Source: an uncultured Alphaproteobacteria bacterium (GTDB taxonomy: Bacteria; Pseudomonadota; Alphaproteobacteria; Methylaequorales; Methylaequoraceae). From it: 64,000 nucleotides of DNA. Positions 1 to 51,312 of this stretch are shown piece by piece. The stretch lies in contig CACJRF010000003.1 in assembly GCA_902595755.1 (NCBI GenBank), positions 56,580-120,579 on the forward strand, written 5' to 3'. The notes below the pieces were generated by a model. The model made no database searches and was not told the origin of the DNA. It saw nothing but the letters and a program-made list of their open reading frames with translations. Numbering within the stretch: the first letter of the stretch is position 1; the number at the start of each line of letters is the position of its first letter. Position numbers and translations under genes: made by a program.

Positions 1-1
1 A

Positions 2-490
2 GACACAACTAATAGTGCTTCAGACACAGCTGCATTAAATGCAGAAGCTGTTGCTGTTAGTGATACGATTGATGATATCGTAACATCATTACGTTTCAAT
101 AACTTAGCTGTACTTGATACTTCTGCAAAAACCTTTAATATCCCAAAAGATGTAGATGGAAATACTACCGCAATTAAAACAACTAATGGAATTACAGCAA
201 CAAATATTACGGATGCTACAGGTTCAAATACTGTAGCAGATACGGCACTAGATGAGATAAAAGAATCCATGGGATTTGTTTCTGGACATTTAAATTCAAT
301 GCTAGCATACAGCGATCTGTCGAGCTCAATAGAAGCAATCGAATTACAGGCAGCTGCACGATTGATGGATACAAAATTTGCTACAGAAACTGCTGAGTTA
401 TTTAAAAATCAATTAATTAGCAAATATGCACATTCAATGATTTCTAAGGGTAATGAGTCTGAAAAAGATAAATTATTAGTAATTATTTAA
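2..490 (+). CDS. Flagellin-family protein, C-terminal portion (5' end lies outside the window)
   Basis: The open frame runs from the window edge to TAA at 488-490. The C-terminal ~80 aa (ALDEIKESMGFVSGHLNSML...DTKFATETAELFKNQLISKYAHSMISKGN) matches the conserved flagellin D1/D0 C-terminal motifs (LGAxQNRLxS ... DADYATEVSNMSKAQIIQQAG..VLAKAN). The upstream part is a Thr/Asn/Asp-rich variable region. Confidence 0.6.
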   Translation, partial: DTTNSASDTAALNAEAVAVSDTIDDIVTSLRFNNLAVLDTSAKTFNIPKDVDGNTTAIKTTNGITATNITDATGSNTVADTALDEIKESMGFVSGHLNSMLAYSDLSSSIEAIELQAAARLMDTKFATETAELFKNQLISKYAHSMISKGNESEKDKLLVII

Positions 491-539
491 CATTTTTTTA
501 TTTGAGACGTTTTAAGTTTAAATTTAAGGAGTTATGGAT

Positions 540-896
540 ATGAATACAAATATTAAAAAAAGCACAGAACAATATGAAATCATTTTGAAACTTTATACTG
601 GACTAAATGATAATCTAAAAAAAATTAACCAAAAATTTGCAAAAAATAAAGAAGATAATAGTATTACACAATTAGCTTATAAAATAGATAAAATTGCAGC
701 AGCTCTTCAGCTTTCATTAGATTTTGAAAATAAAGATGCTAAAAAACTTTCAGAGAATTTAAGAGACATATATAGACATATCAGGCTTGCAATGAAACTA
801 ATTTATGAAAACAAAAATTTTAAGCTTTTGAAGTCAGCATCTGACGTATCATTTAGCCTCAAAGATTCATGGGCAAAAATTAGGCCTAGTATTTAG
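540..896 (+). CDS. fliS: Flagellar export chaperone FliS
   Basis: The ~118 aa helical protein has LKLYTGL and KLSENLRDIYRHIRLAMKLIYENKNFKLLKSASDVSFSLKDSWAKI, matching the FliS signatures (LYdgxL ... NLxxLYDYMxRRLxxAN...EVxxLLxxLRDAWxQI). An AAGGAG Shine-Dalgarno at 526-531 favours the second ATG at 540 over the one at 534. The gene lies immediately downstream of the flagellin ORF. Confidence 0.65.
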   Translation: MNTNIKKSTEQYEIILKLYTGLNDNLKKINQKFAKNKEDNSITQLAYKIDKIAAALQLSLDFENKDAKKLSENLRDIYRHIRLAMKLIYENKNFKLLKSASDVSFSLKDSWAKIRPSI

Positions 897-934
897 TCTT
901 TATAAATTGTTCTCTTTATAATACTATAAGTTTA

Positions 935-2626
935 ATGATAAAGAGAATTACATCAGTTATTATAACTGGGCTATTCGTTGGGACTTTAGTTGCACTCTTG
1001 GTACAATTTTTTTTGTATTCTGTCGATTTTCTTGCAACACTTTTTAGAAAAAACTATGATGAGATAAATTTTGAGGATGATTATTCCTATTTTAGATTTT
1101 TTATTTATTTTTTTGCTATTCCAATATTTATAGGTGTGTTAGTTGGGTTAATAAGAAATCTTAATAAAGATAAGAGATGGCATGGCCCACCTGACGTAAT
1201 CCTTTCAGTCCACCAAGATAATAAAGAACTAAATATAAAATCAGGTTTTTTAACTACAATAGCTTCAATATTATCTATATCCATAGGGAGTTCAGTAGGG
1301 CAATACGGGCCATTGGTTCACTTTGGAGGAACGATTGGTGCAGAAATAAAGAAGCTATTTTCGTTTGCCCCTGATTATAAAATTCTTGTAAGTGCTGGAG
1401 TTGCGTCAGCAATATCTTCAGGGTTCGGTGCTCCACTTGCTGGATTAATTTTTGCTCGTGAAGTAATACTGCGTCATCAGTCTCTTGCCAGTTTCTCCCC
1501 TATACTTTTATCATCAATAATTTCATATGTAATAACAACCAGAGTATTTGATTTCGAACCAGCATTTGAAATTCCTTTTGTGGGAATAAATACATTCGGT
1601 GAAATTATAATTCTAATTTTTGCTGGATTATTTGCAGGAATTTTTGCAAGTTTTTATTCATATCTTTTAACAACTAAAAAACTTAACTTTCTTAACTTTG
1701 GAAATAAGCCTTATTTACTTCCGGCTTATGCAGCTCTTGTATGCGCATTAGTATCAATTAAATTTCCAGAGGTTACAGGGATCGGAGCTGAAACAATTAA
1801 TTCGTTACTAAACTTTGAATTTAATTTAACAACTGCTCTAATATTTTTATTTTTAAAAATCAGTTTAACTACTATGTGCATTAGGATGGGCTTAATTGGA
1901 GGAATATTTGCCCCTGCCCTTTTTATAGGATCTAGTTTAGGAGTTATAACTTTTTACATTGGTTCAGTATTATTTCCGGATATCAATCCAACAATTATTA
2001 TTATTTCTTCAATGGCAGCTTTAGCTAGTTGCATAATAGGAGGTCCAATAGCAAATGTATTAATTGTATTTGAATTGACATCAAATTATGAAGCTGCCTT
2101 ATCATCTGGAATTTGTATCGTAGTGGCAACAATAATTTCATCGCAGCTTATAGGTCAATCAACATTTGATAGACTTCTTAGAGCTAGGTCAATCGATATT
2201 CAAGACGGTAGAGATATCCTTTATCTTAAAAATGTTATGGTTAAGAATATTATAAATAAAGGTTTTCTAAAACTACATGGAAATACAAGCGTTAAAGACG
2301 CTATAGAGATGTTTAAAAAATGTAAATGTAGCGAGGCATACTTTACTAATGAAAAAGATATATTGAAAAATAAAATTTTGTTAATTGATCTGCTTGATTT
2401 GAAAGGTTCTAGTTTGATCAAAGATGTTGCATTGCAGAAATCTATAATTATAAATTCTGATGAAAACCTTATGACTGTGATGGAAAAGTGTAAGGATTTT
2501 GTTGGTGAATCTATACCTGTAACTGACAAAAGTCAAAAATTACTAGGTGTTTTCAGCGAGAATGACCTTTTCATATACTATTCAAAAGCTCAAGAGATTA
2601 GAAAAACTGAAGAAACTAAAGCATAA
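935..2626 (+). CDS. ClC-family voltage-gated chloride channel with C-terminal CBS domain pair
   Basis: The 563 aa polytopic membrane protein carries the ClC selectivity motifs GSSVGQYGP and GGIFAPALFIGSSLG. The C-terminal ~150 aa soluble region is CBS-like. Confidence 0.8.
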   Translation: MIKRITSVIITGLFVGTLVALLVQFFLYSVDFLATLFRKNYDEINFEDDYSYFRFFIYFFAIPIFIGVLVGLIRNLNKDKRWHGPPDVILSVHQDNKELNIKSGFLTTIASILSISIGSSVGQYGPLVHFGGTIGAEIKKLFSFAPDYKILVSAGVASAISSGFGAPLAGLIFAREVILRHQSLASFSPILLSSIISYVITTRVFDFEPAFEIPFVGINTFGEIIILIFAGLFAGIFASFYSYLLTTKKLNFLNFGNKPYLLPAYAALVCALVSIKFPEVTGIGAETINSLLNFEFNLTTALIFLFLKISLTTMCIRMGLIGGIFAPALFIGSSLGVITFYIGSVLFPDINPTIIIISSMAALASCIIGGPIANVLIVFELTSNYEAALSSGICIVVATIISSQLIGQSTFDRLLRARSIDIQDGRDILYLKNVMVKNIINKGFLKLHGNTSVKDAIEMFKKCKCSEAYFTNEKDILKNKILLIDLLDLKGSSLIKDVALQKSIIINSDENLMTVMEKCKDFVGESIPVTDKSQKLLGVFSENDLFIYYSKAQEIRKTEETKA

Positions 2627-2960
2627 AGTCGACGTTGTTTCTTTGACTTGAAGAAGAAGTTTTCAATGTTGATATGAAATAATACCGAGTCATTGCTTCA
2701 TTGTGAATATATCTTGGACCGTTATTTGATCTAGATTTTAAATAGGATTCGGTAGAAACCGCACTTGGGGAAAGTTTGGGACTGTAAAGCTTTTTTTTTA
2801 AAAATTCTGCATTCTCTCTACTATATGGGCTAATATTTTGGGTATTTTCAATTGGTTGTGAAATATTTCGATTAACCGTGTGATGTGGCACACCTTTTGC
2901 TAAATTATCTGTATGTTGGTGAACTATTGGATTAACGTAAGTATAATTAGTATTTAACAT
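2616..2960 (-). CDS. Hypothetical protein, Ser/Asn/Pro/Tyr-rich with atypical composition
   Basis: A 114 aa ORF with no recognisable motif. Local GC (32-35%) is slightly higher than surrounding DNA, and the ORF overlaps the ClC 3' end by 11 nt. Its reality is uncertain. Confidence 0.25.
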   Translation of the reverse strand: MLNTNYTYVNPIVHQHTDNLAKGVPHHTVNRNISQPIENTQNISPYSRENAEFLKKKLYSPKLSPSAVSTESYLKSRSNNGPRYIHNEAMTRYYFISTLKTSSSSQRNNVDFML

Positions 2961-2977
2961 AATTTAAAGATTAACCT

Positions 2978-3352
2978 ATGAAAAAAAATCTTGCAAAGAA
3001 ATTATATAAAAAAATATCAACAGGTGGTATAGAACATGAAAATCCTTTTGATATTTTTAAGAAAGTTAATTACGAGTTGTTGCGTTCTATGAAGATTGTT
3101 GCGGAAAAAATTAAAGATAATAAGGTAGATGAAACAAGACAAACAAACTTTTGTAGAGCACTCATCATTATTTATACAATACAAACTAGCCTAAACTTTG
3201 ACAAAGATGAGCAAACCTCTGCGGACTTATTTAGATTTTATGAATATTGCAGAACCAAACTGATTAATGGTATGTCTAACTTATCTTATAAAGATATTTA
3301 TAAATCTGTCGTTAGTTTAGATAAGATGTTTGATTTTAAATATATTAACTAA
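2978..3352 (+). CDS. FliS-like putative flagellar chaperone paralog
   Basis: The 124 aa helical protein has RALIIIYTIQTSLNFDKDEQTSADLFRFYEYCRTKLINGMSNL, which aligns to the FliS core ([44 protein letters not shown]). The similarity was judged by eye only. Confidence 0.4.
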   Translation: MKKNLAKKLYKKISTGGIEHENPFDIFKKVNYELLRSMKIVAEKIKDNKVDETRQTNFCRALIIIYTIQTSLNFDKDEQTSADLFRFYEYCRTKLINGMSNLSYKDIYKSVVSLDKMFDFKYIN

Positions 3353-3360
3353 GAGGTAAA

Positions 3361-3696
3361 ATGTTATCAGATTTTTTAATAGAAAAAGATGCCAAAAGTG
3401 AATCCCCAGAAATAAGGACTCAAATAAAACGTCTTGAGAATTTAAGCATCTCTATGAGTAATCTTATTGCGAGTGGGAATTCTGATAAAATAATACATTT
3501 AGAGAAAATTAGAAAAAAAATTATAACAGATATAATTAGTACAAAGAGGGTTATTCCAAGTGAACATAAAGACGCATTTAAAAATTTAATTCATTTAAAT
3601 GATAAGATTATTAATGAGATGAAAATGGAAAAAAAAAAAAAACTTCAAAAAATTAATAAACAAATAAAATTTTTCGAATCAACAAAATCTTACTAG
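3361..3696 (+). CDS. Hypothetical Lys-rich coiled-coil protein (possible FliT/FlgN-type chaperone by context)
   Basis: A 111 aa alpha-helical ORF immediately after the FliS-like ORF. It contains an A14 homopolymer at 3629-3642. No diagnostic motif was found. Confidence 0.35.
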   Translation: MLSDFLIEKDAKSESPEIRTQIKRLENLSISMSNLIASGNSDKIIHLEKIRKKIITDIISTKRVIPSEHKDAFKNLIHLNDKIINEMKMEKKKKLQKINKQIKFFESTKSY

Positions 3697-4211
3697 AATT
3701 TATTATTATCGGGATCAATATAATCACCTAATCTACAGTTGATGCTTGATATGCTCTCCCAAGTATCTATTTGAAAGTTTAAACAAATTATTGAAGAAGT
3801 ATTGTACATACTTGGATGTTTTCTTAAACTAGAATTTGCATTACATAAAAAAAAATTCATAATTTCAATTATTATTGGTTCGTGAGTGATAAGTAAAATA
3901 TTCTTAACATCTTTATTTATATACTTTAATTTTAGTAAAATACTTTCCAGATTCCCATCATATAGATTTCTATCTTCTACTATTTTTAGTTTTTTTTTAT
4001 CAAAAGCTTTATTTAATATTTGAAGTGTTTGTTTTGTTCTTTTCGATGGTGAGGTAAAAATTATATCAAAATAAACTTTTTGTTTTAATAATTCTTTAAC
4101 TACCAAATTTGTTTTAAGAATTCCTTTTTTTGAGATTTCTCTACCAAAATCATCTCCTCCATAACCATGTACATGCGAATCAGCATGTCTCATTATAAAT
4201 AATTTTAACAT
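3693..4211 (-). CDS. sixA: Histidine phosphatase superfamily protein, SixA-like phosphohistidine phosphatase
   Basis: The N-terminal LFIMRHADS (the RHG/RHA catalytic motif) and the later LLITHEP (second catalytic His) fit a SixA-like phosphatase. Length is 172 aa. Confidence 0.6.
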   Translation of the reverse strand: MLKLFIMRHADSHVHGYGGDDFGREISKKGILKTNLVVKELLKQKVYFDIIFTSPSKRTKQTLQILNKAFDKKKLKIVEDRNLYDGNLESILLKLKYINKDVKNILLITHEPIIIEIMNFFLCNANSSLRKHPSMYNTSSIICLNFQIDTWESISSINCRLGDYIDPDNNKF

Positions 4212-4235
4212 AAACTATTCAGTAAAAATTAATTA

Positions 4236-5990
4236 TTATTTTAACCATTCATATTTTTTTTTATAAATATCTAAAATTTTATAGTAATCTTTATATTTAC
4301 TTAAATATTTTTTAGAAACAACTTCTTTAATTTGATGTTTAGAAGCTGTAAGAGAAAAAAAGTTTTTTTCTTTCGATTCTGAAGGTTTTTTTTTATTTTT
4401 AATATCTAAAAAATTAAATAATTTGCTAATCTCTATTTTTTCATTTTTTACTAGCTTGGAATGATTAATCTCAAATGTTATATCTTTATATTTTTTTTTC
4501 TGTTTTTTCATCAAAATGAAATACTGCTCAACATATTCTAATATATTTTCAAGATGGAATGACCAAGGTAGTTCGGAAAAATTCTGTTTAAATATTGCTA
4601 TTATATTTTCTTTGATATCTCTTGTAGAATGGATAAATTTTGCCTTAGGAAAAATATCTATTATTAAATCCATATATGTAAAATTAGGTAATGTTTTATC
4701 ACAAAATGTGGGGAATTCATTCAAGCTATTAAAATTTCTACAATATAATTTATAAAGAGATTCCTTAACATCACTTACATCTGTTTTATTTAAAAACATA
4801 TTAATCAAACTAGATTCCTCACAGCAAAAAATAGAATAAGAATTACAAATAATTTTTTGAACAAGTGTAGATCCAGATCTGGGCAAACCTATAATAAAAA
4901 TAGGTGAGACGGTTGAATTTCTAAATTTAGTAAGATTATTTTTACTCATAAACTTAATTTGTTTTTTATATCTATAAAGTGGCATATTATATTTTAAGAT
5001 TCTTGCCTTTGAAGGGGGAGAAAGATACTTTTTTTTAAAGGCCGCATTCTTGATATAATTTAAAATTCTGATTTCCTCCATTATTCTTTTCTCAAACTCC
5101 ATTTTTTTGGATAAAACAAATCCATAACATTGAAAATCATAGTAATGCATTACTCTCTTTTCAAAATCTGCATTTAAATTGTAGTTGAACTCAGCATCTA
5201 TGTATTTTTGTTTTATTTGTTTTAGATCAAGATGATCATTTGATAGCACACCCAAATTGATCTTTGCATATTCCTTATTAATAAAACTACATTTATCTAT
5301 AAATTTTATTATTTTATCCTTATCATACAAAGTTGAAATAAATTTGTATTCGATTGTTTTAAGAAAATTTTTATGATCAGTTTGTTTCTTTAATTTTTTT
5401 AACTCTTTCAACCCTTTTTGTGGATCATCTCTGAGAAATGAGAGTAAATAAGATTCTATCAATGATGGTTCTTTATAATTTGTAATTAATCTTCTTAAAA
5501 TTGAACGTCCCTCATAAAACTCTGCATATAAATACATTTTATTTAATGCTAACCTTTCATAGCCTCTGTAATAATTAGGAAAGTATTCGATGGATAATGA
5601 AGTTAATTTATTCGCGGACTTATAATCTAAAAGAATATTTGACGAAAGTTTTGACAGTTCCACAAAAATATCTTTACATGACTTAAAATCAAATAAACTA
5701 TGCTTTCTTATAAATTCTTGAACAATATTACTAGCTGTTTCCAGTTCCCCTAATAATATATGATTTAAAATTTTATGAAGTATTAATTTACATGAAAAAT
5801 TGTTTATTTTAATACAGGTATCCAGAAATTCTAAGGATAATTTATATTGATGTGTATTTTTAGCAATTAACGCTAAGCTAAATATTGAATTGATATCTTT
5901 TGGATTATCGTTTAACTTTACCTGCAAAATTTGAATATTATTATTTATTTTATTTTCATATGAGTGTTTTAATTGCTCGTAATAATTCAT
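4236..5990 (-). CDS. TPR-like N-terminal domain fused to a C-terminal sulfotransferase domain
   Basis: The C-terminal half carries the sulfotransferase 5'-PSB P-loop IFIIGLPRSGSTLVQ and a downstream STRD (3'-PB-like) motif. The N-terminal ~330 aa is helical-repeat-like. Total length is 584 aa. Confidence 0.6.
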   Translation of the reverse strand: MNYYEQLKHSYENKINNNIQILQVKLNDNPKDINSIFSLALIAKNTHQYKLSLEFLDTCIKINNFSCKLILHKILNHILLGELETASNIVQEFIRKHSLFDFKSCKDIFVELSKLSSNILLDYKSANKLTSLSIEYFPNYYRGYERLALNKMYLYAEFYEGRSILRRLITNYKEPSLIESYLLSFLRDDPQKGLKELKKLKKQTDHKNFLKTIEYKFISTLYDKDKIIKFIDKCSFINKEYAKINLGVLSNDHLDLKQIKQKYIDAEFNYNLNADFEKRVMHYYDFQCYGFVLSKKMEFEKRIMEEIRILNYIKNAAFKKKYLSPPSKARILKYNMPLYRYKKQIKFMSKNNLTKFRNSTVSPIFIIGLPRSGSTLVQKIICNSYSIFCCEESSLINMFLNKTDVSDVKESLYKLYCRNFNSLNEFPTFCDKTLPNFTYMDLIIDIFPKAKFIHSTRDIKENIIAIFKQNFSELPWSFHLENILEYVEQYFILMKKQKKKYKDITFEINHSKLVKNEKIEISKLFNFLDIKNKKKPSESKEKNFFSLTASKHQIKEVVSKKYLSKYKDYYKILDIYKKKYEWLK

Positions 5991-6041
5991 GACTATTATG
6001 TGTTTTAAATTAGTTAAGTTAAATAGTAGAATGCGATTTAT

Positions 6042-6725
6042 ATGCCAAAAGATATCAAAAATATAAAATTAGTAATTTTTGATGTTAATGAGACTATGTT
6101 TTCATTAGCTAATATTAACTACCTATTTAAAAATTTTGGTCTTCCTCCCAATACATCAGATCTCTGGTTCGCAAATGTACTTAAAGAGGGGTTTGCGTGT
6201 TCTTCACATGGTAGCTTCTGTAGCTTTATTGATATTGGTGCAAATGAATTAAAAAAATTATTTTTAAAGTTTGAATTGAAATATAAAAAAACTCATTTTA
6301 ACATGTTACTTAACGAACTTTCTAATTTGAATATTCATCACGATGTAGCAGAGTCTATTAAAATTCTTCATAAATATGGTTTAAAAATTGTAACACTTAC
6401 CAATGGCTCAAAAAGCAATACACTTAAACTAATTAAAAAAAATAATATGTCTAAATATATAAATAGATGTTTTTCTATTGATGAAATTAAATTATGGAAA
6501 CCAAATAAAAAAATTTACCTGCATGTTTGTAATAAGATGAGTTTTTCGTCATCAGATGCTATGATGATAGCTGCGCATGCTTGGGATGTAAGTGGAGCGA
6601 AAAATGCTGGATTGAAAACTGCCTACATTACTAGGTATGAGAAAATACTTGGAAGCATTTACCCAAAACCAGACATAGTTGCACAAGACTGTCTATCTGT
6701 AATTAACAGAATTAAATTTAATTAA
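6042..6725 (+). CDS. HAD-superfamily hydrolase (haloacid dehalogenase-like)
   Basis: The HAD motifs are present: I LVIFDVNET, II VTLTNGS, III the conserved Lys in LWKPNKKIY, and IV AHAWDVSGAKNAG. Confidence 0.6.
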   Translation: MPKDIKNIKLVIFDVNETMFSLANINYLFKNFGLPPNTSDLWFANVLKEGFACSSHGSFCSFIDIGANELKKLFLKFELKYKKTHFNMLLNELSNLNIHHDVAESIKILHKYGLKIVTLTNGSKSNTLKLIKKNNMSKYINRCFSIDEIKLWKPNKKIYLHVCNKMSFSSSDAMMIAAHAWDVSGAKNAGLKTAYITRYEKILGSIYPKPDIVAQDCLSVINRIKFN

Positions 6726-7272
6726 TTTTCCATTTTATACTACAACCTGCACTCGAAGACTGTTCCTTCGGTCCTTCACCAGTTTTGGATATTTTTATCA
6801 TTGCATTAAGTAGGTCATTTGTTTTACCAATAAACTGTAAGTTATTCATTAAGCCTAGTCGCCCCCTGTAGTTGAGTTTATTATCTGAATTAAATCCAAA
6901 AAAGTCTGGGGTACAAACTGCGCCGAAGTTTTTACTTACTTCTTGAGTTTTGTCAATTAGATAAGGAAATTTAAATTGGTGTTTTGTTGAAAAAAAATTC
7001 ATATTTTCAAAGCTATCTTCTGGATATTTTTCTGCGTCATTTGGCATAATTGCTATTGATTTAATATTAAACTTTTCTAATTCATTTGTCGTTTCAACAA
7101 TTTTATCAATTATCGCTTTTACGTAAGGACAGTGATTACAAATAAACATAATTAATGTTCCTGACTTACCAACTAAGTCCCTACTTTTCAAAACTGTTCC
7201 ATCTATATTCATTAACTCAAAGGAAGGCATTACTTTTTCTTGATCACAAATCGGCGAATTTAATAATACCAT
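6718..7272 (-). CDS. Thioredoxin-fold redoxin family protein (CxxC)
   Basis: The motif MFICNHCPYVKAI (C-x-x-C in a thioredoxin-like context) is followed by an AhpC/TSA/TlpA-like spacing of beta strands. Length is 184 aa. Confidence 0.5.
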   Translation of the reverse strand: MVLLNSPICDQEKVMPSFELMNIDGTVLKSRDLVGKSGTLIMFICNHCPYVKAIIDKIVETTNELEKFNIKSIAIMPNDAEKYPEDSFENMNFFSTKHQFKFPYLIDKTQEVSKNFGAVCTPDFFGFNSDNKLNYRGRLGLMNNLQFIGKTNDLLNAMIKISKTGEGPKEQSSSAGCSIKWKIN

Positions 7273-7688
7273 TAGTTTTCTCCTAGTAAATGAACAAGAA
7301 CTTCTCTTTTTTTACTCGATGTTCTATGCTCAAGCAAGTAAATAGCCTGCCATGTTCCTAATATAATCTTTTTATCTTTTAAACTCAAAGAAATATGAGT
7401 TTGTGTTAACAGGGATTTTAAGTGTGCTGGCATATCGTCAGGCCCTTCTGTACTGTGAAAATAATTTCCTTCAGGCGCGATTTTTTTGAGGAAAACTGAA
7501 ATATCTCTTAAAACATTTAGATCCGCATTTTCCTGAATCATTAATGAACAACTTGTGTGAAGTATACTTAAATTGAGAAGTCCATTTTTAATCTCATATC
7601 TATTAATTAAATTGTAAATATCCTGCGTTATATCTATAATTTCACTTGGAGATGTATTAACAATTAATTTTTTTAAAACTTGTAACAT
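7272..7688 (-). CDS. yjbQ: YjbQ/UPF0047 family protein (secondary thiamine-phosphate synthase-like)
   Basis: The 138 aa protein has HTSCSLMIQENADLNVLRD...PEGNYFHSTEGPDDMPAHLKS...LGTWQAIYLLEHR, which aligns closely to E. coli YjbQ (HTSASLTINENADPDVRHD...DDMPAHIKS...LGTWQGIYLCEHR). Confidence 0.7.
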   Translation of the reverse strand: MLQVLKKLIVNTSPSEIIDITQDIYNLINRYEIKNGLLNLSILHTSCSLMIQENADLNVLRDISVFLKKIAPEGNYFHSTEGPDDMPAHLKSLLTQTHISLSLKDKKIILGTWQAIYLLEHRTSSKKREVLVHLLGEN

Positions 7689-7738
7689 TTAGTACACTAT
7701 ATTAATCTATCATACTAGGAAATGAAGGAGAATCTAAA

Positions 7739-7837
7739 ATGGCTAAAGATAAAGTAAAAATCGATCCAAGTAAAGTAAAGCAAGTAGACCTAAAAAGTGT
7801 TTTCTCTAAAGTTTTGGATAAATTAAAATCTAAATAA
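7739..7837 (+). CDS. Small Lys-rich protein (32 aa), hypothetical
   Basis: The ORF is ATG...TAA with a strong GAAGGAG Shine-Dalgarno at 7724-7730, 8 nt upstream, encoding MAKDKVKIDPSKVKQVDLKSVFSKVLDKLKSK. It is not in the supplied ORF track (below its length cutoff). Confidence 0.3.
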   Translation: MAKDKVKIDPSKVKQVDLKSVFSKVLDKLKSK

Positions 7838-7843
7838 TACCCA

Positions 7844-7984
7844 ATGAAAAAGATCTGGATTGAGTGCCAAAAATGTGGCTCAATTTTCTGGGTTTTTTCA
7901 GATGAGGTAAAATCAGTCTACCCAAAAAGTTCGTTGAACTACCAAATATGTTCCGGTTGTGAATCAAAACTAGATGATCGGTGA
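7844..7984 (+). CDS. Small zinc-ribbon protein (46 aa), hypothetical
   Basis: The ORF encodes MKKIWIECQKCGSIFWVF...YQICSGCESKLDDR with two CxxC pairs (C8/C11 and C36/C39). Its stop codon is immediately followed by the next ORF's ATG. Confidence 0.35.
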   Translation: MKKIWIECQKCGSIFWVFSDEVKSVYPKSSLNYQICSGCESKLDDR

Positions 7985-8242
7985 ATGATAATTGAATATT
8001 TTGAGGATCTAAAAAGTCAAATAGGACTTTATTTTATCATAATAAAAATTATTTTTTATTTTATTATTGGTGCCTTAATTATTTATGTCTTAAAGAAAAT
8101 ATCAAATTTATTTAGTTTTTTTTTTAGATTTCTTAAAAAGGATTCATTAAAAAAAAATATTTATTTAATTTTTCAAACTATTATGTTCATAATCATCTCA
8201 ATATTTATTGGCTGGTTTGTAATTTATTTATATTTTAAATGA
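7985..8242 (+). CDS. Small membrane protein (2 predicted TM helices), hypothetical
   Basis: The 85 aa hydrophobic ORF overlaps the downstream Wzy_C gene by ATGA. Confidence 0.35.
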   Translation: MIIEYFEDLKSQIGLYFIIIKIIFYFIIGALIIYVLKKISNLFSFFFRFLKKDSLKKNIYLIFQTIMFIIISIFIGWFVIYLYFK

Positions 8243-9417
8243 AATTTTTTTTTGAATATCTTTCCACTGTTCTTATAGCTTTCTCTTATACTTTTTTAAT
8301 AAGAAATCACGTATATTTTGGAGTCGTATTGGGAACTGGAACTTTAATAATGGTATTATTAAATATAAGTATAATAAAATCAGAGCTACCAAAATATAAT
8401 TTTAAACCATTTTTAATATTGGTCATCAGTTTTTTCATTGCCTCATTGAACTCAATCATGATTGGAAGATCGTTGGCAGTTTTTATTTATTTAGTATTAA
8501 TTATTATATTCAGTTTTTTCATTTATATATCTATCTCTAAAAACCAAGTTATAAAAGAAAGGCTTCTTCATTATTTTGTCATATCTATTTATGTAAATTT
8601 ATTTATCGTCACAGTTTTTAATTTCATTAACTGGGATTTAAAGTTTATAGATACAAGTGAAATTAAAAGGTTTAAGGGTTATCTAAATATTTTGACAATC
8701 CTAGTTTTAATCCTACCTTTTATAAAGAAAACAAAAATAAATATTATTGCTTGTATTTTTTTGATACCTAATTTATGGCTAAGTAATTGTAACTCTGCAA
8801 TTCTAGGTGTCTTAATATCATTGGCAGCTTTATCAATTTTTTATATTTATAAAAATATATTTAGATTTAAGATATTATTTTACTTTTTACTTTTTATTTT
8901 AATAACTTTTTCTTCCCAAATATTATTAAATCTTCCGGAAAATTTAGATAAGGAATCAATTCAAACACAAAAATTTATAGTTCCAACTTTTTTAGTAGAT
9001 GCTCATAGACAATACATTTGGAGTTTTAGTATTAAAAAAATTTCTGAAAAACCATTATTGGGTTACGGACCAGATACTTCTAATTTTATTGAAGGCAGTC
9101 AAGAAATTATAGGATCAAAATATACTGGAACTATGCCATATATCCCTAGTCATCCGCATAACTTTCTACTAGAGATTTTCTTAGACACTGGAATAATTGG
9201 GCTAGTTGTGTTTATAATTTTTATTTTTTATTATAATTTTCAAATCTTTAGAAAATCGAATAGCAACGGGAAGTTTTTACTAATTTTATTTTTTTTTTAT
9301 TTTTGGGGCTCTTCTTTAGTCAATTTTTCTTTCTGGCTTGGATGGTGGCAAGTGAGTTATTTTTTTATAACTGCGCTTATAAGCTCGATTAATTTATCCA
9401 AAAACCAAAAGACTTGA
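8239..9417 (+). CDS. O-antigen ligase (Wzy_C) family polytopic membrane protein; possibly a PglL/PilO-type protein O-oligosaccharyltransferase
   Basis: The 392 aa protein has ~10 hydrophobic segments plus a periplasmic loop with RQYIWSFSIKKISEKPLLGYGPD and a HPHNFLLEIFLDTG block typical of the Wzy_C/O-antigen ligase fold. Confidence 0.55.
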   Translation: MKFFFEYLSTVLIAFSYTFLIRNHVYFGVVLGTGTLIMVLLNISIIKSELPKYNFKPFLILVISFFIASLNSIMIGRSLAVFIYLVLIIIFSFFIYISISKNQVIKERLLHYFVISIYVNLFIVTVFNFINWDLKFIDTSEIKRFKGYLNILTILVLILPFIKKTKINIIACIFLIPNLWLSNCNSAILGVLISLAALSIFYIYKNIFRFKILFYFLLFILITFSSQILLNLPENLDKESIQTQKFIVPTFLVDAHRQYIWSFSIKKISEKPLLGYGPDTSNFIEGSQEIIGSKYTGTMPYIPSHPHNFLLEIFLDTGIIGLVVFIIFIFYYNFQIFRKSNSNGKFLLILFFFYFWGSSLVNFSFWLGWWQVSYFFITALISSINLSKNQKT

Positions 9418-10623
9418 ATTGAATAAACTTTTTTTGTCTATCTTGTCATAAAATTTTAAAATATCTATATTAAAAAGCATTTTAAAATTTTTATCATGAT
9501 GAAAAAAAATTTGATTGCTTCTCTCAACGCTATTAATTATATTAACAAAATCTTCTAACGTTGGTTCTCTGTTCTCCTTTGAACAAATCCCTAATAAAAT
9601 AATTTTTGAAACAGTTGCTAGAAAAATTGACATATAGAAATTATACTTGAGAAATGAATTTGGATTTGTGAGTATATGTGCATAACCTAAAATTTCATTT
9701 AAAAAAAAGTTTCTAAATATATGATTATTCTTTTGTTCAAACCTACAAAAATATTCCTGATTGATCTTTTTCAAATTCTCTATAGCATAATCTATATTAT
9801 CAAACCTACCGACTAGTTCTAGATAACTATTTTCAATTAAGCTAATTAATTTTTGAGTATAAAAGTTACTACAAGTATGTTTTAATTTAATCTGATCAAT
9901 AATGTTGAAAATATCAGTTAAAAATAAAATTTTAAGGTTAGAATTATCAAACGCTATGATATCGATGTCACAAAAATTTTCATAAAAAAATTTGTAAATC
10001 TCGTCAAATTGTTTTGAATTCTGAGAAATATTTAGTTGTTCTTCTAAAAGTTTATTAAAAATAACTAAAGAATTAAGATAACTTATCTTTTCATTTTGAA
10101 GTAATTGATACACCTTATTAATTATTAAGTTCCCAGTATTTGCAAATGGAGTTTCAAATTTCTCTGACACCAAATTAAACTTTTTTTTTTTATAAAATTT
10201 ATCCTCATAAATTTCCATTGAATTTTTATTTGATAAACAAAGTCTTGCAGCTTCTGGACAGGACACACTTAATGTTACAAGTTTATTTTCTTTAAAATTT
10301 ATATTTTTTCTTGGGAAAGTGTAACAGGTATGAGATAAGAAATCCTCTCCATATTTCTTTTGAATACTACATAATCCATCATTTCCTAAAAATGAGCAAT
10401 ACCCATCTTTTCTCGACTTAATAGATGAGAAATGTTTTTCAGTTGGATTATCTTTTTTTTGCAAAAGGTTAGGTATATTCGTGATCCCTTCTATTTTTAT
10501 TTTTTGATATTTAGAATGAGTTTCTTTATCTATGTCAATAGTCATCCCATGACAACATGTCTCAGGGCATTTTGAACCAAGGCATGAGAATTTATTAACA
10601 TATTGTGGAGAATAATTGACCAT
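9394..10623 (-). CDS. fliB: Flagellin lysine-N-methylase FliB-like (YkgJ-type Cys-cluster N-terminus)
   Basis: The N-terminal FSCLGSKCPETCCHGMTIDIDKETH matches the FliB/PF03692 cysteine cluster (C-x2-C-x3-CC-x-GW-I-x-D). The ~400 aa length matches Salmonella FliB. It lies in the same locus as the flagellin and fliS genes. Confidence 0.55.
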   Translation of the reverse strand: MVNYSPQYVNKFSCLGSKCPETCCHGMTIDIDKETHSKYQKIKIEGITNIPNLLQKKDNPTEKHFSSIKSRKDGYCSFLGNDGLCSIQKKYGEDFLSHTCYTFPRKNINFKENKLVTLSVSCPEAARLCLSNKNSMEIYEDKFYKKKKFNLVSEKFETPFANTGNLIINKVYQLLQNEKISYLNSLVIFNKLLEEQLNISQNSKQFDEIYKFFYENFCDIDIIAFDNSNLKILFLTDIFNIIDQIKLKHTCSNFYTQKLISLIENSYLELVGRFDNIDYAIENLKKINQEYFCRFEQKNNHIFRNFFLNEILGYAHILTNPNSFLKYNFYMSIFLATVSKIILLGICSKENREPTLEDFVNIINSVERSNQIFFHHDKNFKMLFNIDILKFYDKIDKKSLFNSSLLVFG

Positions 10624-10717
10624 ACTTTTATGGTCGCAAAATATATGCCAATTTTTTTGAAGATAATAAATTTAATCTGGTCTAAGAATTGCACTAAGAT
10701 TTATCAAAGATTATAAA

Positions 10718-11626
10718 ATGTTAAGAAAAGTAGAAAAATTAGACGTAAATTATCTCAATAATGACTCTTTATTAAGTAAGGAGTTCTGGGTTAATCTTAA
10801 TCCCTATTTGAATATCGAGAATATTTTTTATGATAATCAATCAATAATTTCATATAAAAACCTCGCTCAAGATAAAAATCATCTAATAAAATTAGGATAT
10901 TTACATAAAAAAAAACCAAATTTTAAAGTTCCAATTCTATCAATGAAAAAATCTATAGGCAATATAGTTAATTATAAATTACCTCCTGTTTTTGCATTTG
11001 TTTATGATGAATTCTGGTATACTCAATTTCAATTGCAAATGTTACTTGAGGAATTTCTCGATAAAAATTATAAACAACTTCCTGATTTTTGGGCATGGCA
11101 TGTGAGTAGTGGTCAATCAGGATGGGCGCCTCATAGAGATAAAGGTGAAACATCTTTATTTAAGAATAACAAACCAAAATCTCTTACGGTATGGATTCCC
11201 CTTAGTAAAGCCTCACCAGATAATAGTTGTATGTATATACTTCCAGCGAATAAAGATAATTTTTATAATAAACCTAAATTGAATTCAGATTTACCAGGAG
11301 TCGTTTCTGATATAAAAGCACTTCCTGCTGAAGCTGGTGACGTTTTAATGTGGACACAAGAACTTTATCATTGGGGTTCTAGTTCAGGCCAGGACAGTCT
11401 TAATGATCCAAGAATAAGTATAGCATTTGAGTTTCAAAGATCTGATATTGCACCATTTAATACTTTTTTACTAGAACCTAATCTTCTACCTACATTTAAT
11501 GAACGTTTAGTCCTAATATCTATGCAAATTTTACAATACACACATATGTATGGTTTTAAAAAAGACCTAGTATATTGGGCACAAAGTTATATAGAAAAAT
11601 ATAAAGAGAAATTGTCTTTAGTATAA
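10718..11626 (+). CDS. Phytanoyl-CoA dioxygenase (PhyH) family Fe(II)/2-oxoglutarate oxygenase
   Basis: The HxD...H iron triad is present in APHRDKG ... YHWGSS. The surrounding beta-jellyroll signature is WIPLSKASPDNSCMYILP. Confidence 0.65.
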   Translation: MLRKVEKLDVNYLNNDSLLSKEFWVNLNPYLNIENIFYDNQSIISYKNLAQDKNHLIKLGYLHKKKPNFKVPILSMKKSIGNIVNYKLPPVFAFVYDEFWYTQFQLQMLLEEFLDKNYKQLPDFWAWHVSSGQSGWAPHRDKGETSLFKNNKPKSLTVWIPLSKASPDNSCMYILPANKDNFYNKPKLNSDLPGVVSDIKALPAEAGDVLMWTQELYHWGSSSGQDSLNDPRISIAFEFQRSDIAPFNTFLLEPNLLPTFNERLVLISMQILQYTHMYGFKKDLVYWAQSYIEKYKEKLSLV

Positions 11627-11683
11627 TATTTTTATTTTTAAATAACCTCTTAAATGATAAACAAGTTTGTAAAATAATTAATT

Positions 11684-12400
11684 CTAATAATCAAAATGTA
11701 CTTTTTTATTATTGAACTTTACAAAAAAGTATGTCCATCCGTATATTGATGATAGTTTATAACCATTAGAAGTAAAAAATTTATAGATTTTATTATTAGT
11801 TGGAGGACATTTTTCAGAATGTATTTCAATAGATACAAGCTCCGGAGAATATTTTTTTATAGCAAAGCCATCAAGTACATTTTCTTCATTTCCCTCAACA
11901 TCAATATTTAAATAATCAATTTTATTAATCTCATGATTTTTAAGGATTGTGTTTAGACTAAGCTGCTCTAATCTAAGTACAGTTGGTTCTTTATTTACAC
12001 TTTTTTTTGTATATTCTTTAAATTTTTTATCGACTGTATTCATTGAGCAATTATCATAAAAAATATACGCATCTATCATAGATTCATTTTTTCCTACTGA
12101 AATATTTAAATTTATATCTTTCGATCTAATCAATTTATTAAGTTTTATTGATCTAGGAGATATATCAACTTTGACTCCTTTCCATCCTCTTTTGTATAAA
12201 AGATATGTTAGTGATCTACTTTTTGGAAGATTACAGCCTATGTCCACATAAAATCCTTTTTTTTTTTGCTGAAAAAAATAGTCTACAAAGAGATCTTCTC
12301 CAAAACTTTCAGAATATGATTTTTTGTATTCACCAAAATAATTTTTTATTAATTCATAAAAAAATGAAGATTTAATTTTTTTTCTAATTTTTTTAAGCAT
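11684..12400 (-). CDS. FkbM-family SAM-dependent methyltransferase
   Basis: The motif VDIGCNLPKSRS is a glycine-rich SAM-binding variant typical of FkbM. The C-terminal YLNIDVEGNEENVL matches the FkbM IDVEG(a)E motif. Confidence 0.7.
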   Translation of the reverse strand: MLKKIRKKIKSSFFYELIKNYFGEYKKSYSESFGEDLFVDYFFQQKKKGFYVDIGCNLPKSRSLTYLLYKRGWKGVKVDISPRSIKLNKLIRSKDINLNISVGKNESMIDAYIFYDNCSMNTVDKKFKEYTKKSVNKEPTVLRLEQLSLNTILKNHEINKIDYLNIDVEGNEENVLDGFAIKKYSPELVSIEIHSEKCPPTNNKIYKFFTSNGYKLSSIYGWTYFFVKFNNKKVHFDY

Positions 12401-48318: not shown

Positions 48319-48407
48319 TGGTGCGAGCGGTGGGACTTGAACCCACAAGGGTGTTACCACCCGCAGGATTTTAAGTCCTGTCTGTTTACCAATTTCAGCA
48401 CGCTCGC
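48319..48407 (-). tRNA. tRNA-Leu (anticodon TAA)
   Basis: Cloverleaf by hand: 7-bp acceptor GCGAGCG/CGCTCGC with discriminator A and encoded CCA. The anticodon stem CAGGA/TCCTG has loop cTTAAaa. A long variable arm GGGTGGTAACACCC is typical of class II tRNA-Leu. The T-arm is GTGGGTTCAAGTCCCAC. Confidence 0.8.
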
Positions 48408-48584: not shown

Positions 48585-49886
48585 CTAGGGTTTGTATAGA
48601 TAATTTTCAAATAATATAGAAAGGCATTTAGGAGAAAGGTGAATTTTATCGCACATATGTTTATTATTATTTTCTCCATTCAAGTTAGAAGTCAAATCAT
48701 AAACATTTAAGAAATATGCCCCTCTAGATAAAACTTCTTTTTTTAGAATTAAATTGTATATTTTGATTATCTCAATTCTTTTTTTATCAAGTTTATCCTG
48801 TGATTCTTCTTTAATTGTTGGCGCTGGAACACCAAAGTAAAATCTTTTTGGGTATTGGAGAGATAAGGTTAACTCCATATGATTTAAATAACCATTTATA
48901 GTGTTCTTGCACACTTCAGAGATATCTTTGTCTTCCTTGATTACGTAAGGTAATATTCCTTCATTTTTTCTACAATCTATTTCTCCAAAAGAAATAAACA
49001 CTTCATCAGAATAAGTATGATTTTTAATCTGTTGAGTTAAAGACTCTTTCCAGTTGTTATTCTTACTTTTAGAAAAATGCCATGCCTTCCCTCCTGTTAT
49101 CATAACTGGTTGAATTTTTTTTACTTTTGATGACATAGATAGAGTTTGATGAGCAAAAGAAAGACAATGACTTTCTCCAATATGAGGTATTTTTTCTGAA
49201 TAAGAATTATGACTGTTTTTCTCAAGCTCATTATATATTGAGGAAATAAATTGGGTTAAGAACCATGCATGCTGCCTAGTTTTTACTTCTTTAATAATAT
49301 AGAGAACACCTTGCTCTATTAATTCATTAATTTTATTTAGGTATAATGAGGTTTCTGAAAAATCTCCTTTTTGTAAATTAGCGCAGGTTATCTGTAGTAA
49401 AGCTCTTAGTTTATCCTCGGGTGCGATTGATTTTGATTCAAGTTTAGATTTTGATAAAAGAATAACCTCTCTCAATTTACCAACGTCTAACAATATGTCT
49501 CCAAGTGCATTTAGCGCCTCTTTGAAGTCTGGATTAAGCTCAATTGCTTTACGCTGTGATATTTCTGCTTCTTCCAATCTACCAAGTTCTCTCAGTATGT
49601 TTCCCAGATTAAAATGTACGTGTGCTACATTTGGTTTTAGATCAACTGCTTTGCGTGATAATATTGCTGCCTCTTCTAATTTGCCAAGTTGCTGCAATAT
49701 ATTTCCAAAATTAGAAAAGACTCTATAATCATTAAAATCTTTATTGATGCAGAATTGATAATGTTTTACCGCCTCTGTGATATTACCCTCTTTATGAAAA
49801 TTTATTGCTTTACCAATTATTTGCTCCTCAGCTGGATTAATAATATTTGCATATTTAGTGGAAGAGTGATTTTGAAAATTTGTCAT
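48585..49886 (-). CDS. TPR repeat protein with uncharacterised ~250 aa C-terminal domain
   Basis: The N-terminal ~170 aa holds 4-5 TPR units (NFGNILQQLGKLEEA, HFNLGNILRELGRLEEAE, etc.). The C-terminal domain has no recognised motif; a DxxH near the end could hint at an SGNH-like fold, which is speculative. Confidence 0.5.
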   Translation of the reverse strand: MTNFQNHSSTKYANIINPAEEQIIGKAINFHKEGNITEAVKHYQFCINKDFNDYRVFSNFGNILQQLGKLEEAAILSRKAVDLKPNVAHVHFNLGNILRELGRLEEAEISQRKAIELNPDFKEALNALGDILLDVGKLREVILLSKSKLESKSIAPEDKLRALLQITCANLQKGDFSETSLYLNKINELIEQGVLYIIKEVKTRQHAWFLTQFISSIYNELEKNSHNSYSEKIPHIGESHCLSFAHQTLSMSSKVKKIQPVMITGGKAWHFSKSKNNNWKESLTQQIKNHTYSDEVFISFGEIDCRKNEGILPYVIKEDKDISEVCKNTINGYLNHMELTLSLQYPKRFYFGVPAPTIKEESQDKLDKKRIEIIKIYNLILKKEVLSRGAYFLNVYDLTSNLNGENNNKHMCDKIHLSPKCLSILFENYLYKP

Positions 49887-50165
49887 TACAAATCATTAGC
49901 AAAAATCGTTCCAATTTAGCTCTGTATATTAACTATTAATTGATTTAGTTTATAACTTTTTTTTAAGATAATCTTAGGGTGATGAAATTTACAAACTAAA
50001 GATTCAAAAAATTTTTATTTTGGGTGAGTTGATAATCAACTTTATAAAAATTTTATTAATTCAATAACGATTTTAATACCTTTTTGGACGCAAATCTAAA
50101 AGCTCGAAAAAAATTGATATTCAACATGAATGATATCTTACAATTAAATTTATGAATAACGAACT

Positions 50166-50369
50166 TTACTTAAATAAGTTTTTAATTTCTTTTTGAAGAA
50201 TTTCTCTCGTAATTTCCTTAGCATTTTTATCAAGCCATTCTTCAACTATTGATTTTATCAAATCCTTATCTTCAAAATTTGCTGAAGATTCTTTCTCACT
50301 TACTTTTCTAACTTTCGGTCCTACAGACTTTCTTACTTCATCAATAATATCAGAATTTTCTTTTTTCAT
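50166..50369 (-). CDS. Small protein resembling the DUF2497 (PopZ C-terminal) domain
   Basis: The 67 aa ORF has SIVEEWLDKNAKEITREILQKEIKNLF, comparable to the DUF2497 consensus (EWLDaNLP.lVErlVraEIeRv). This was judged from memory of the motif. Confidence 0.3.
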   Translation of the reverse strand: MKKENSDIIDEVRKSVGPKVRKVSEKESSANFEDKDLIKSIVEEWLDKNAKEITREILQKEIKNLFK

Positions 50370-50818
50370 ATTTTTTTACTTCTATCAATTTTTTTATCAA
50401 CAGCATCAATTAAGCTGTCTATACTTTTTTCGTCAATAACTTCCGAATGTAATTTTACTTTTGATTTTATATCTTTTTTGAGTGAATCCATAACTATTTT
50501 TTGCTGAAATCTTGGAAATGTATTAAAGTCTTTTCCATATATATCCCCTACCCTTTTTACTATTAATTCAATTTTCTTTTTATATAAATTTGAATCAATT
50601 AATTCTTGTTTATATAAATCTTTAAGAACTATTAATTTCTCTTCGTACTTTTCTAGAGCATCAATATCAATCTTAATAGCTTCCTCTTTGTCAACTAGTT
50701 CAATTGGTTTTTTATTTGTATACTTTTTTGAACCTAATAAAAAAACAACAAAGATAGCTATTATAGCTAAATAAGATTGGTTATCTTCAAAAATTTTTAA
50801 AATATCCATAAAAGTCAA
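50366..50818 (-). CDS. Hypothetical membrane-anchored protein (N-terminal MDIL motif, one TM, SHOCT-like helical C-terminus)
   Basis: The 150 aa protein starts MTFMDILKIFED, has a hydrophobic segment YLAIIAIFVVFLLG and then Lys/Glu-rich helices. It is ATGA-coupled to the next ORF. Confidence 0.35.
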   Translation of the reverse strand: MTFMDILKIFEDNQSYLAIIAIFVVFLLGSKKYTNKKPIELVDKEEAIKIDIDALEKYEEKLIVLKDLYKQELIDSNLYKKKIELIVKRVGDIYGKDFNTFPRFQQKIVMDSLKKDIKSKVKLHSEVIDEKSIDSLIDAVDKKIDRSKKI

Positions 50819-50886
50819 AATAAACTAAGATTGTGAATTGTTAAAATTTAAGGTTATTATATATTAAATTTTTAAAAAATAATAAG

Positions 50887-51312
50887 ATGAATAAAAAAAG
50901 AAAAGTCGATGATGTTCTTGAATCCATTTTTAATTTAATTCAAGAAGCACATAAAGAATTAAAAGAATCAAAAAAAAATGGTCAAAATCATAACAACCTT
51001 TTAATTGAAAAAGAAAAATCAATTAACGTTCATAAAAGTTTAATAGAGGAAAAGAAAGTAAGTAATTCAAAAAGTAGGGATGATGACTGGTCTAATCTTA
51101 ATTTCAAAAGGATTGAATTTACCAAGTATCAAAATACTACTTATAACGGTGAATCTACGAAAATCACCCAAGGACATTGGCTTTCTGATGATAATATAAA
51201 AAAAGTTTTTTTTGATTCACTTAAAGATTGGAATAAAAAAAATCTAAAAAATTTAACAGAAAATACCTATCAAGAAATTATAAAAGAGAGCTTAAAAAAA
51301 AAACTAAAATAA
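50887..51312 (+). CDS. Hypothetical Lys-rich protein
   Basis: A 141 aa ORF with no motif recognised. Confidence 0.3.
   Translation: MNKKRKVDDVLESIFNLIQEAHKELKESKKNGQNHNNLLIEKEKSINVHKSLIEEKKVSNSKSRDDDWSNLNFKRIEFTKYQNTTYNGESTKITQGHWLSDDNIKKVFFDSLKDWNKKNLKNLTENTYQEIIKESLKKKLK

Follow-up and report, generated by a model that had tools for sequence, protein, structure and literature searches.

The polar flagella of Vibrio, Pseudomonas, Campylobacter, and Caulobacter are controlled by two-tier hierarchies of the sigma factors sigma-54 and sigma-28. With regard to flagellin modification, two described systems come closest to the locus presented here, namely, I) the FlmG/pseudaminic acid system of Caulobacter crescentus, an alphaproteobacterium with several flagellin paralogs of which one is divergent (PMC7591256), and II) the flagellin lysine-N-methylase FliB of Salmonella enterica, which is described as conserved in Enterobacteriaceae (PMC8598068, PMC7181671) and in which the motif CX4CX3CC binds a [4Fe-4S] cluster (PMC8598068). 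This study deals with the flagellin locus at the left end of a 64-kb stretch of DNA from an uncultured alphaproteobacterium (contig CACJRF010000003.1; hereafter referred to as the window, i.e., the whole stretch at its full length). The initial annotation of the window had described this locus as an orphan set of flagellin, FliS, and FliB genes with modification enzymes in an otherwise housekeeping genome. According to our reading, to which we assign a probability of roughly 0.8, the first 3.7 kb are the downstream end of a ~21-kb flagellar cluster of the order TMED127, and 3.7-12.4 kb is a flanking block with genus-specific inserts. We regard the locus as a late-flagellar cluster of an ordinary kind that is truncated at the window edge and adjoined by a modification island whose content varies by lineage.

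The continuation of the locus beyond the left edge is seen on contigs L003 and L010-L013, which overlap the window at 99.7-100% nucleotide identity and run on upstream. There they carry, in this order, genes for a 1,789-aa FlgK, FlgL, a 164-aa protein without family match, flagellins of 250, 249, and 515 aa, FliD, and a 130-aa FliS (fliS1), followed by the flagellin gene that the window cuts. The orphan appearance of the locus is therefore an artefact of where the window begins. The FlgL ortholog on contig L009 matched TIGR02550 with 240 bits. On L047, a 635-kb contig from the same genus as the window (87.5% nucleotide identity), flgK is preceded by flgG, flgH, flgI, and the rod-binding flgJ, as it is in other genera, and unrelated genes (ferritin, SBF, ABC) lie beyond. 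The conserved cluster measures ~21 kb, its last 3.7 kb lying inside the window, and consists of flgG-H-I-J-K-L, three further flagellins, fliD, fliS, the gene of a 254-aa flagellin (fliC254), fliS, a ClC-type gene, and fliS. Its predicted products would be the distal rod protein FlgG, the L- and P-ring proteins FlgH and FlgI, FlgJ, a giant hook-filament junction protein FlgK, FlgL, four flagellin types, the cap protein FliD, and three FliS chaperones.

In the loci examined, the order flgK-flgL-unk164-flagellins-fliD-fliS1-fliC254-fliS2-ClC-unk114-fliS3-cc111 is kept as far as each contig reaches, with insertions between fliD/fliS1 and fliC254 in some genera. When an alignment of FliD was used as the query, the cluster was detected in 20 GTDB species representatives, again with its gene order kept; with a single FliD sequence instead, the reference genomes gave no match. 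FlgG is at least 89% identical among the matches listed, FliD is only ~61% identical between genera, and single FlgG sequences were found on up to 392 contigs. All open reading frames (ORFs) of the cluster that lie inside the window are intact.

Several observations concern the cluster in individual genomes. Typical FlgK proteins have ~450-700 aa, and the 1,789-aa FlgK of the window's population (L011:1-952, running off the locus; L047:6195-11566) has an extended insertion separating the usual rod-type domains at its N- and C-termini. Because the single-cell TMED127 assemblies L027, L032, and L035 end inside flagellin genes, automated gene inventories of such genomes may under-count flagellar genes. 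A full TMED127 flagellar cluster is also deposited in a metagenome-assembled genome labelled Flavobacteriales bacterium SP47 (L033, PBAP01000021.1), a label that is probably a binning error.

The cluster-bearing genomes that were checked by name belong to the order TMED127 ("Methylaequorales") and to at least six of its genera, namely, GCA-2691245, GCA-2711515, SP4073, MED-G10, TMED211, and CACBWF01; the genus assignment covers those of the 20 species representatives that were traced, with names according to Glass et al. 2025 (PMC12542740). TMED127 genomes are ~1.5 Mb in size, and their owners have been described as streamlined, marine, free-living, obligate lanthanide-dependent methylotrophs, which have been reported among the most transcriptionally active methanol oxidisers of the oligotrophic surface ocean (PMC12542740). 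Formate dehydrogenase, fdhD, mobA, and moaA are present in the window and fit the methylotrophy of TMED127. A premise of a non-motile, SAR11-type genome would thus place the window in the wrong lineage: SAR11/Pelagibacterales was ruled out, as the cluster-bearing genomes are TMED127. As for other candidate lineages, 12 genome names were absent from Table S1 of the SAR116 study, which speaks against the low-GC subclade of SAR116, and six were absent from the supplements of the study on HIMB59/AEGEAN-169. Neither of two HIMB59 papers mentions flagella.

The proposed C-terminus of a flagellin at the start of the window was borne out. Frame 2 is open there, and its 162 codons are the 3' part of fliC254, with 100% identity to the last 162 residues of the complete 254-aa flagellin on metagenome contig L011. 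Several NCBIfam flagellin models align to the fragment (best E 6e-9), far under their full-length cut-offs, and Flagellin_C (PF00700) gave 19.2 bits, under the Pfam cut-off of 23; the C-terminal D1/D0 region of fliC254 scores 16.7-19.2 bits with this model. The N-terminal part lies outside the window, and in the full-length copy on L001 (99.2% nucleotide identity to the window over the overlap) it matched Flagellin_N (PF00669) with 41.5 bits, over the cut-off of 26.6. The gene stands in the context flgK-flgL-flagellins-fliD-fliS-fliC254-fliS. fliC254 encodes a divergent paralog, 24-34% identical to the other flagellins, with a non-canonical C-terminal end and a lysine content of 6.3% versus 2-2.8% in the other three; the four flagellin types are mutually 27-52% identical.

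The two FliS ORFs of the initial annotation were likewise confirmed, and all three FliS paralogs of the cluster pass the PF02561 cut-off (31.1, 32.7, and 32.9 bits), with TIGR00208 scores well under cut-off. As the three share only 18-26% identity, dedicated chaperone-flagellin pairs are suggested, in which each FliS would hold the C-terminus of its own flagellins and pass them to the export apparatus. Between fliS2 and fliS3, a ClC gene was found in every species examined; it is kept at this position in L026-L045, two of these loci ending inside the gene. Given that it starts only 38 nt 3' of fliS2, it is probably co-transcribed with this chaperone gene. We know of no flagellar role for a ClC-type protein. 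Four small proteins without family match are encoded within the cluster or at its border, with 164 aa (L011:2279-2773, minus strand), 114 aa, 111 aa (cc111), and 105 aa (L047:2866-3183). The first three are kept across genera, and cc111 follows fliS3 in every locus that reaches that far. These four may be chaperones or regulators of the FliT, FlgN, FlgM, or FlaG type that have escaped recognition.

Two conserved motifs resemble the promoters of the two-tier hierarchies. The sigma-54 motif TGGCAY-N5-TTGC occurs upstream of flgG (in three genera), of the long flagellin gene (in every locus examined), of fliS3, and of fliB. In the 64 kb of the window, two matches were seen versus 0.13 expected. 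The 15-mer ahead of fliS3 is identical in L014 and L026, GCA-2691245 having the same 15-mer, and L039 has a variant of it. Metagenome relatives whose FliB is 78-94% identical have the same -24 and -12 elements at the fliB site but differ in the spacer. The second motif, CTWAA-N14-16-GTCGTT, is laid out like a sigma-28 promoter. It is kept ahead of the 250-aa flagellin gene (Fla250), ahead of fliS1, and, in several loci, ahead of fliS2, with less strict forms ahead of fliD; another loose match lies at 3289-3313. The copy ahead of fliS2 in the window is a weaker one, with a stricter CTAAA-N15-16-GTCGTT at the equivalent place in L014, L026, L039, and L044. In L039, a sigma-28-like motif also precedes fliC254 itself.

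As in the polar flagella of the genera named above, GG-N10-GC elements are thus found ahead of rod/ring genes and one flagellin gene, and TAAA-N15-xxCGxx elements ahead of the other flagellin and chaperone genes; unlike in those hierarchies, the -10-like element is GTCGTT, not GCCGATAA. Judging from the motifs, sigma-54 promoters would drive flgG-L, the long flagellin gene, fliS3, and fliB, and sigma-28-like promoters would drive the short flagellin genes and fliS1-fliC254-fliS2. Because of these footprints, RpoN and a FliA-like factor are to be expected elsewhere in the genome.

The FliB of the window matched the NCBIfam equivalog NF038110 over nearly its full length (201.1 bits, cut-off 85; residues 6-369 on model positions 1-362 of 373), carries CX4CX3CC at residues 14-24 (CLGSKCPETCC), and has a precomputed PF27117 FliB_C annotation. 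The call as a FliB-like methylase was upheld by these matches, but the domain by which it was to be recognised, PF03692, was not detected in the ORF by a Pfam scan. The gene order guaA-FkbM-PhyH-FliB is kept in L054, L056, L057, and L058. Salmonella FliB (PMC8598068, PMC7181671) resembles it in the near-full-length match to NF038110, in the CX4CX3CC motif near the N-terminus, and in a gene position close to flagellin genes. Differences are the alphaproteobacterial host, the distance of ~9 kb between fliB and the nearest flagellin gene, the neighbours Wzy_C and PhyH, the sigma-54-type promoter, and flagellins with few lysines (2-6%). The most likely role of FliB is to methylate lysines of flagellin in the cytoplasm, within the sigma-54 regulon. 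FliB is the only flanking enzyme that family membership and predicted promoter, beyond adjacency, tie to the flagellum.

The flanking block of the SixA-like, HAD, AhpC-like, YjbQ, small membrane protein, and Wzy_C genes accompanies the cluster in other genera too (HAD, AhpC-like, and YjbQ genes also in L036, L037, L041, and L048-L050). In the window's genus, in MED-G10, and in related loci, the block follows cc111; in GCA-2691245 it precedes flgG. With the ferritin/SBF/ABC block on one side and the SixA...Wzy_C block on the other in both cases, the whole cluster, from flgG to cc111 (~21 kb), is inverted in place in GCA-2691245 (L048/L014) relative to the window's genus (L047). Gene content past Wzy_C differs by lineage. 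In GCA-2691245, a 546-aa TPR (tetratricopeptide repeat)/GT-B-like protein, GT2, DegT, a CMP-sugar synthetase, and NeuB are encoded there, with a sigma-54 motif ahead of GT2; in CACBWF01 (L044), a Polysacc_synt_2-family (PseB-like) dehydratase, DegT, a formyltransferase, a 2-epimerase, and GT2 are encoded inside the flagellin cluster. In the window's genus, the locus lacks FlmG-like and sugar genes and instead encodes FliB, PhyH, FkbM, and the sulfotransferase. The Sulfotransfer_3, HAD, Wzy_C, PhyH, and FkbM assignments all exceed the Pfam cut-offs, as had been proposed. The initial annotation had also considered a modification island whose flagellar regulon lies elsewhere: modification candidates do lie beside flagellar genes, the remainder of which is outside the window, but the set is not an orphan, as the window starts inside the conserved cluster. 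The suggested comparison with related genomes gave a cluster order kept in the 20 species representatives and lineage-variable content past Wzy_C.

Sulfotransferase, PhyH, and FkbM are candidates for flagellin or glycan decoration by their position, i.e., by adjacency alone. The region 3.7-12.4 kb apart from fliB may instead be a general flexible island for the cell envelope (O-antigen/lipopolysaccharide), in which the sulfotransferase, PhyH, FkbM, HAD, and Wzy_C proteins would act on envelope glycans rather than on flagellin; this is a serious alternative, which we nevertheless do not favour. Wzy_C belongs to the O-antigen ligase family, the sulfotransferase, PhyH, and FkbM genes have neither a sigma-54 nor a strict sigma-28-like motif ahead of them, and flexible glycosylation islands have been reported in the streamlined marine lineage HIMB59 (PMC10734472). 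Furthermore, because the cluster is merely inverted between the same flanks in all genera, the adjacency is inherited synteny, which by itself provides neither a functional link nor independent evidence of linkage. A role in flagellar modification is favoured by the predicted sigma-54 promoters ahead of fliB and, at the equivalent place in GCA-2691245, ahead of the GT2/nonulosonic acid operon, and by the FlmG-like and sugar genes inserted inside the flagellin cluster in other genera.

The likeness to the Caulobacter FlmG system (PMC7591256) extends to proteins of 540-557 aa in other TMED127 genera, which combine a TPR N-terminus with a GT-B-like C-terminus and are encoded beside NeuB, DegT, and CMP-sugar synthetase; they are mutually homologous (E 3e-52 for the compared pair), and their likeness to FlmG was judged by architecture and a weak heptosyltransferase match rather than by direct alignment to FlmG. 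The window's genus differs in having FliB, sulfotransferase, PhyH, and FkbM in place of such genes. Its 584-aa sulfotransferase had been annotated as a TPR-sulfotransferase, of which the sulfotransferase part stands and the TPR part was not confirmed, as Pfam gave no TPR match and hhalign against TPR-bearing relatives a probability of 2%. The N-terminal 233 residues are predicted to form a run of ~13 short helices. The nearest solved structures are tyrosylprotein sulfotransferases, which were not significant (E 0.2-0.6) and matched at the PAPS (3'-phosphoadenosine-5'-phosphosulfate) motif, and a structure model made without an alignment was unusable (predicted local distance difference test, pLDDT, 37.7). 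A FlmG-type glycosyltransferase was rejected for this protein, as its C-terminal domain is Sulfotransfer_3 rather than GT-B and it has no similarity to the TMED127 FlmG-like proteins. It is a speculative and rather unlikely idea that the decoration module was swapped between TMED127 genera, most having an FlmG-like nonulosonic acid module and the window's genus FliB plus a tyrosylprotein-sulfotransferase-like enzyme, the helical N-terminal half of which would target flagellin as the TPR does in FlmG. If so, flagellin or its glycan would be a substrate of sulfation. To our knowledge, flagellin sulfation has not been reported.

Some observations weigh against a complete flagellar system of this kind. 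Genes for the hook, MS ring, C ring, export gate, and motor, as well as rpoN and fliA, were not seen in the sequence covered, which comprised ~35 kb surrounding the cluster on the 1.48-Mb ERZ28548059 contig_3797 and the 64-kb window, where, as initially stated, the scan of all ORFs of at least 90 aa between 12.4 and 64 kb returned no hook, rod, motor, export, or other flagellar gene, all being housekeeping or without family match. The part of the AG-892-F10 gene table that was available, its first ~473 genes (about a third), has no flagellar or chemotaxis annotation. The dedicated TMED127 paper mentions neither flagella nor motility (PMC12542740), and literature searches surfaced no such report. 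In addition, promoter function is predicted from the motifs, and the sigma-54 element ahead of fliB would leave the transcript almost no leader.

The first three of these observations would also suit a non-functional remnant, motility having been lost or being lost during genome streamlining. This is improbable: neither the window nor short-read contigs show disrupted ORFs, gene order is kept in 20 species, FlgG is highly conserved, promoter motifs are kept while spacers vary, and a 1.5-Mb genome is not expected to retain ~21 kb of dead genes. Least probable is the use of the flagellin-like protein outside a canonical flagellum, as had been proposed initially: the divergence of FliC254, its non-canonical C-terminal end, and its sub-threshold Flagellin_C match would agree with it, but fliC254 is flanked by fliS genes on both sides and closely follows fliD, its cluster also contains the genes for rod, L ring, P ring, junction, and cap, and sigma-28-like motifs precede fliS1 and, in L039, fliC254. 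A late-flagellar cluster in service of a complete flagellum is thus preferred, and a complete flagellum is very likely present in these cells.

Table. Features of the flagellar cluster end and the flanking block (window positions)
Feature	Position	Strand	Basis and remarks
fliC254, 3' part	2..490	+	Open frame; Flagellin_C; NCBIfam flagellin models; identity to L011
Candidate sigma-28-like promoter ahead of fliS2	487..511	+	TTAAC-N14-GACGTT, read from sequence; weaker copy
fliS2, flagellin export chaperone paralog	534..896	+	PF02561 31.1 bits, cut-off 26.7; position kept in all loci
ClC-type channel/antiporter with CBS domain	935..2626	+	Voltage_CLC E 6e-67 plus CBS
Conserved 114-aa protein, function unassigned by family	2616..2960	-	No Pfam/NCBIfam match; position kept in related loci
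Predicted sigma-54 promoter ahead of fliS3	2886..2900	+	TGGCAC-N5-TTGC; one of two matches in 64 kb
fliS3, third FliS paralog	2978..3352	+	PF02561 32.7 bits, cut-off 26.7
cc111, conserved 111-aa lysine-rich protein	3361..3696	+	No family match; final gene of conserved cluster
SixA-like histidine phosphatase	3693..4211	-	His_Phos_1; TIGR00249 sixA 70.7 bits, cut-off 74.5; first gene of conserved flanking block
584-aa sulfotransferase, long helical N-terminal half	4236..5990	-	Sulfotransfer_3 E 3e-24, residues 363-531; seen only in window's genus
HAD hydrolase (+), AhpC/TSA-like (-), YjbQ/UPF0047 (-)	6042..7688	mixed	Pfam
85-aa membrane protein and Wzy_C (O-antigen ligase family) membrane protein	7985..9417	+	Wzy_C E 3e-17; kept in other genera
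fliB, predicted flagellin lysine-N-methylase	9394..10623	-	NF038110 201 bits; CX4CX3CC; PF27117 FliB_C
Predicted sigma-54 promoter ahead of fliB	10636..10650	-	TGGCAT-N5-TTGC; ends 12 nt before fliB ATG
PhyH-family dioxygenase (+), FkbM-family methyltransferase (-)	10718..12400	mixed	Pfam; specific to window's genus

As a genetic system, the cluster is ordinary, and it is of modest interest since flagella have gone undiscussed in this lineage. The conserved and apparently selected cluster suggests that TMED127 cells with genomes of 1.5 Mb can swim, which, if true, would change the view of how these cells find patchy methanol sources, e.g., phytoplankton. How the flagellar surface varies in the open ocean, perhaps under pressure from phages or grazers, could be studied on concrete targets, the modification genes that differ by lineage and the FliB of a free-living alphaproteobacterium.

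GC content at third codon positions and codon usage do not differ between positions 1-12,400 and the remainder of the window, so that the compositional contrast the initial annotation had proposed to look for is absent; the values are native and give no signal of horizontal transfer of the first 12.4 kb. Within the flanking block, the gene of the 85-aa membrane protein (7985-8242) has a GC content of 15.9% (z = -4.5 versus housekeeping genes), overlaps the Wzy_C gene by 4 nt, and is kept in relatives. A seemingly truncated gltX at the right edge was a false alarm, as its frame runs off the window. An Rfam scan of the window returned one tRNA only (48322-48407), which adjoins a low-GC patch (~0.25; 48585-51312) encoding a 433-aa TPR protein and ORFs of 150 and 141 aa without family match.

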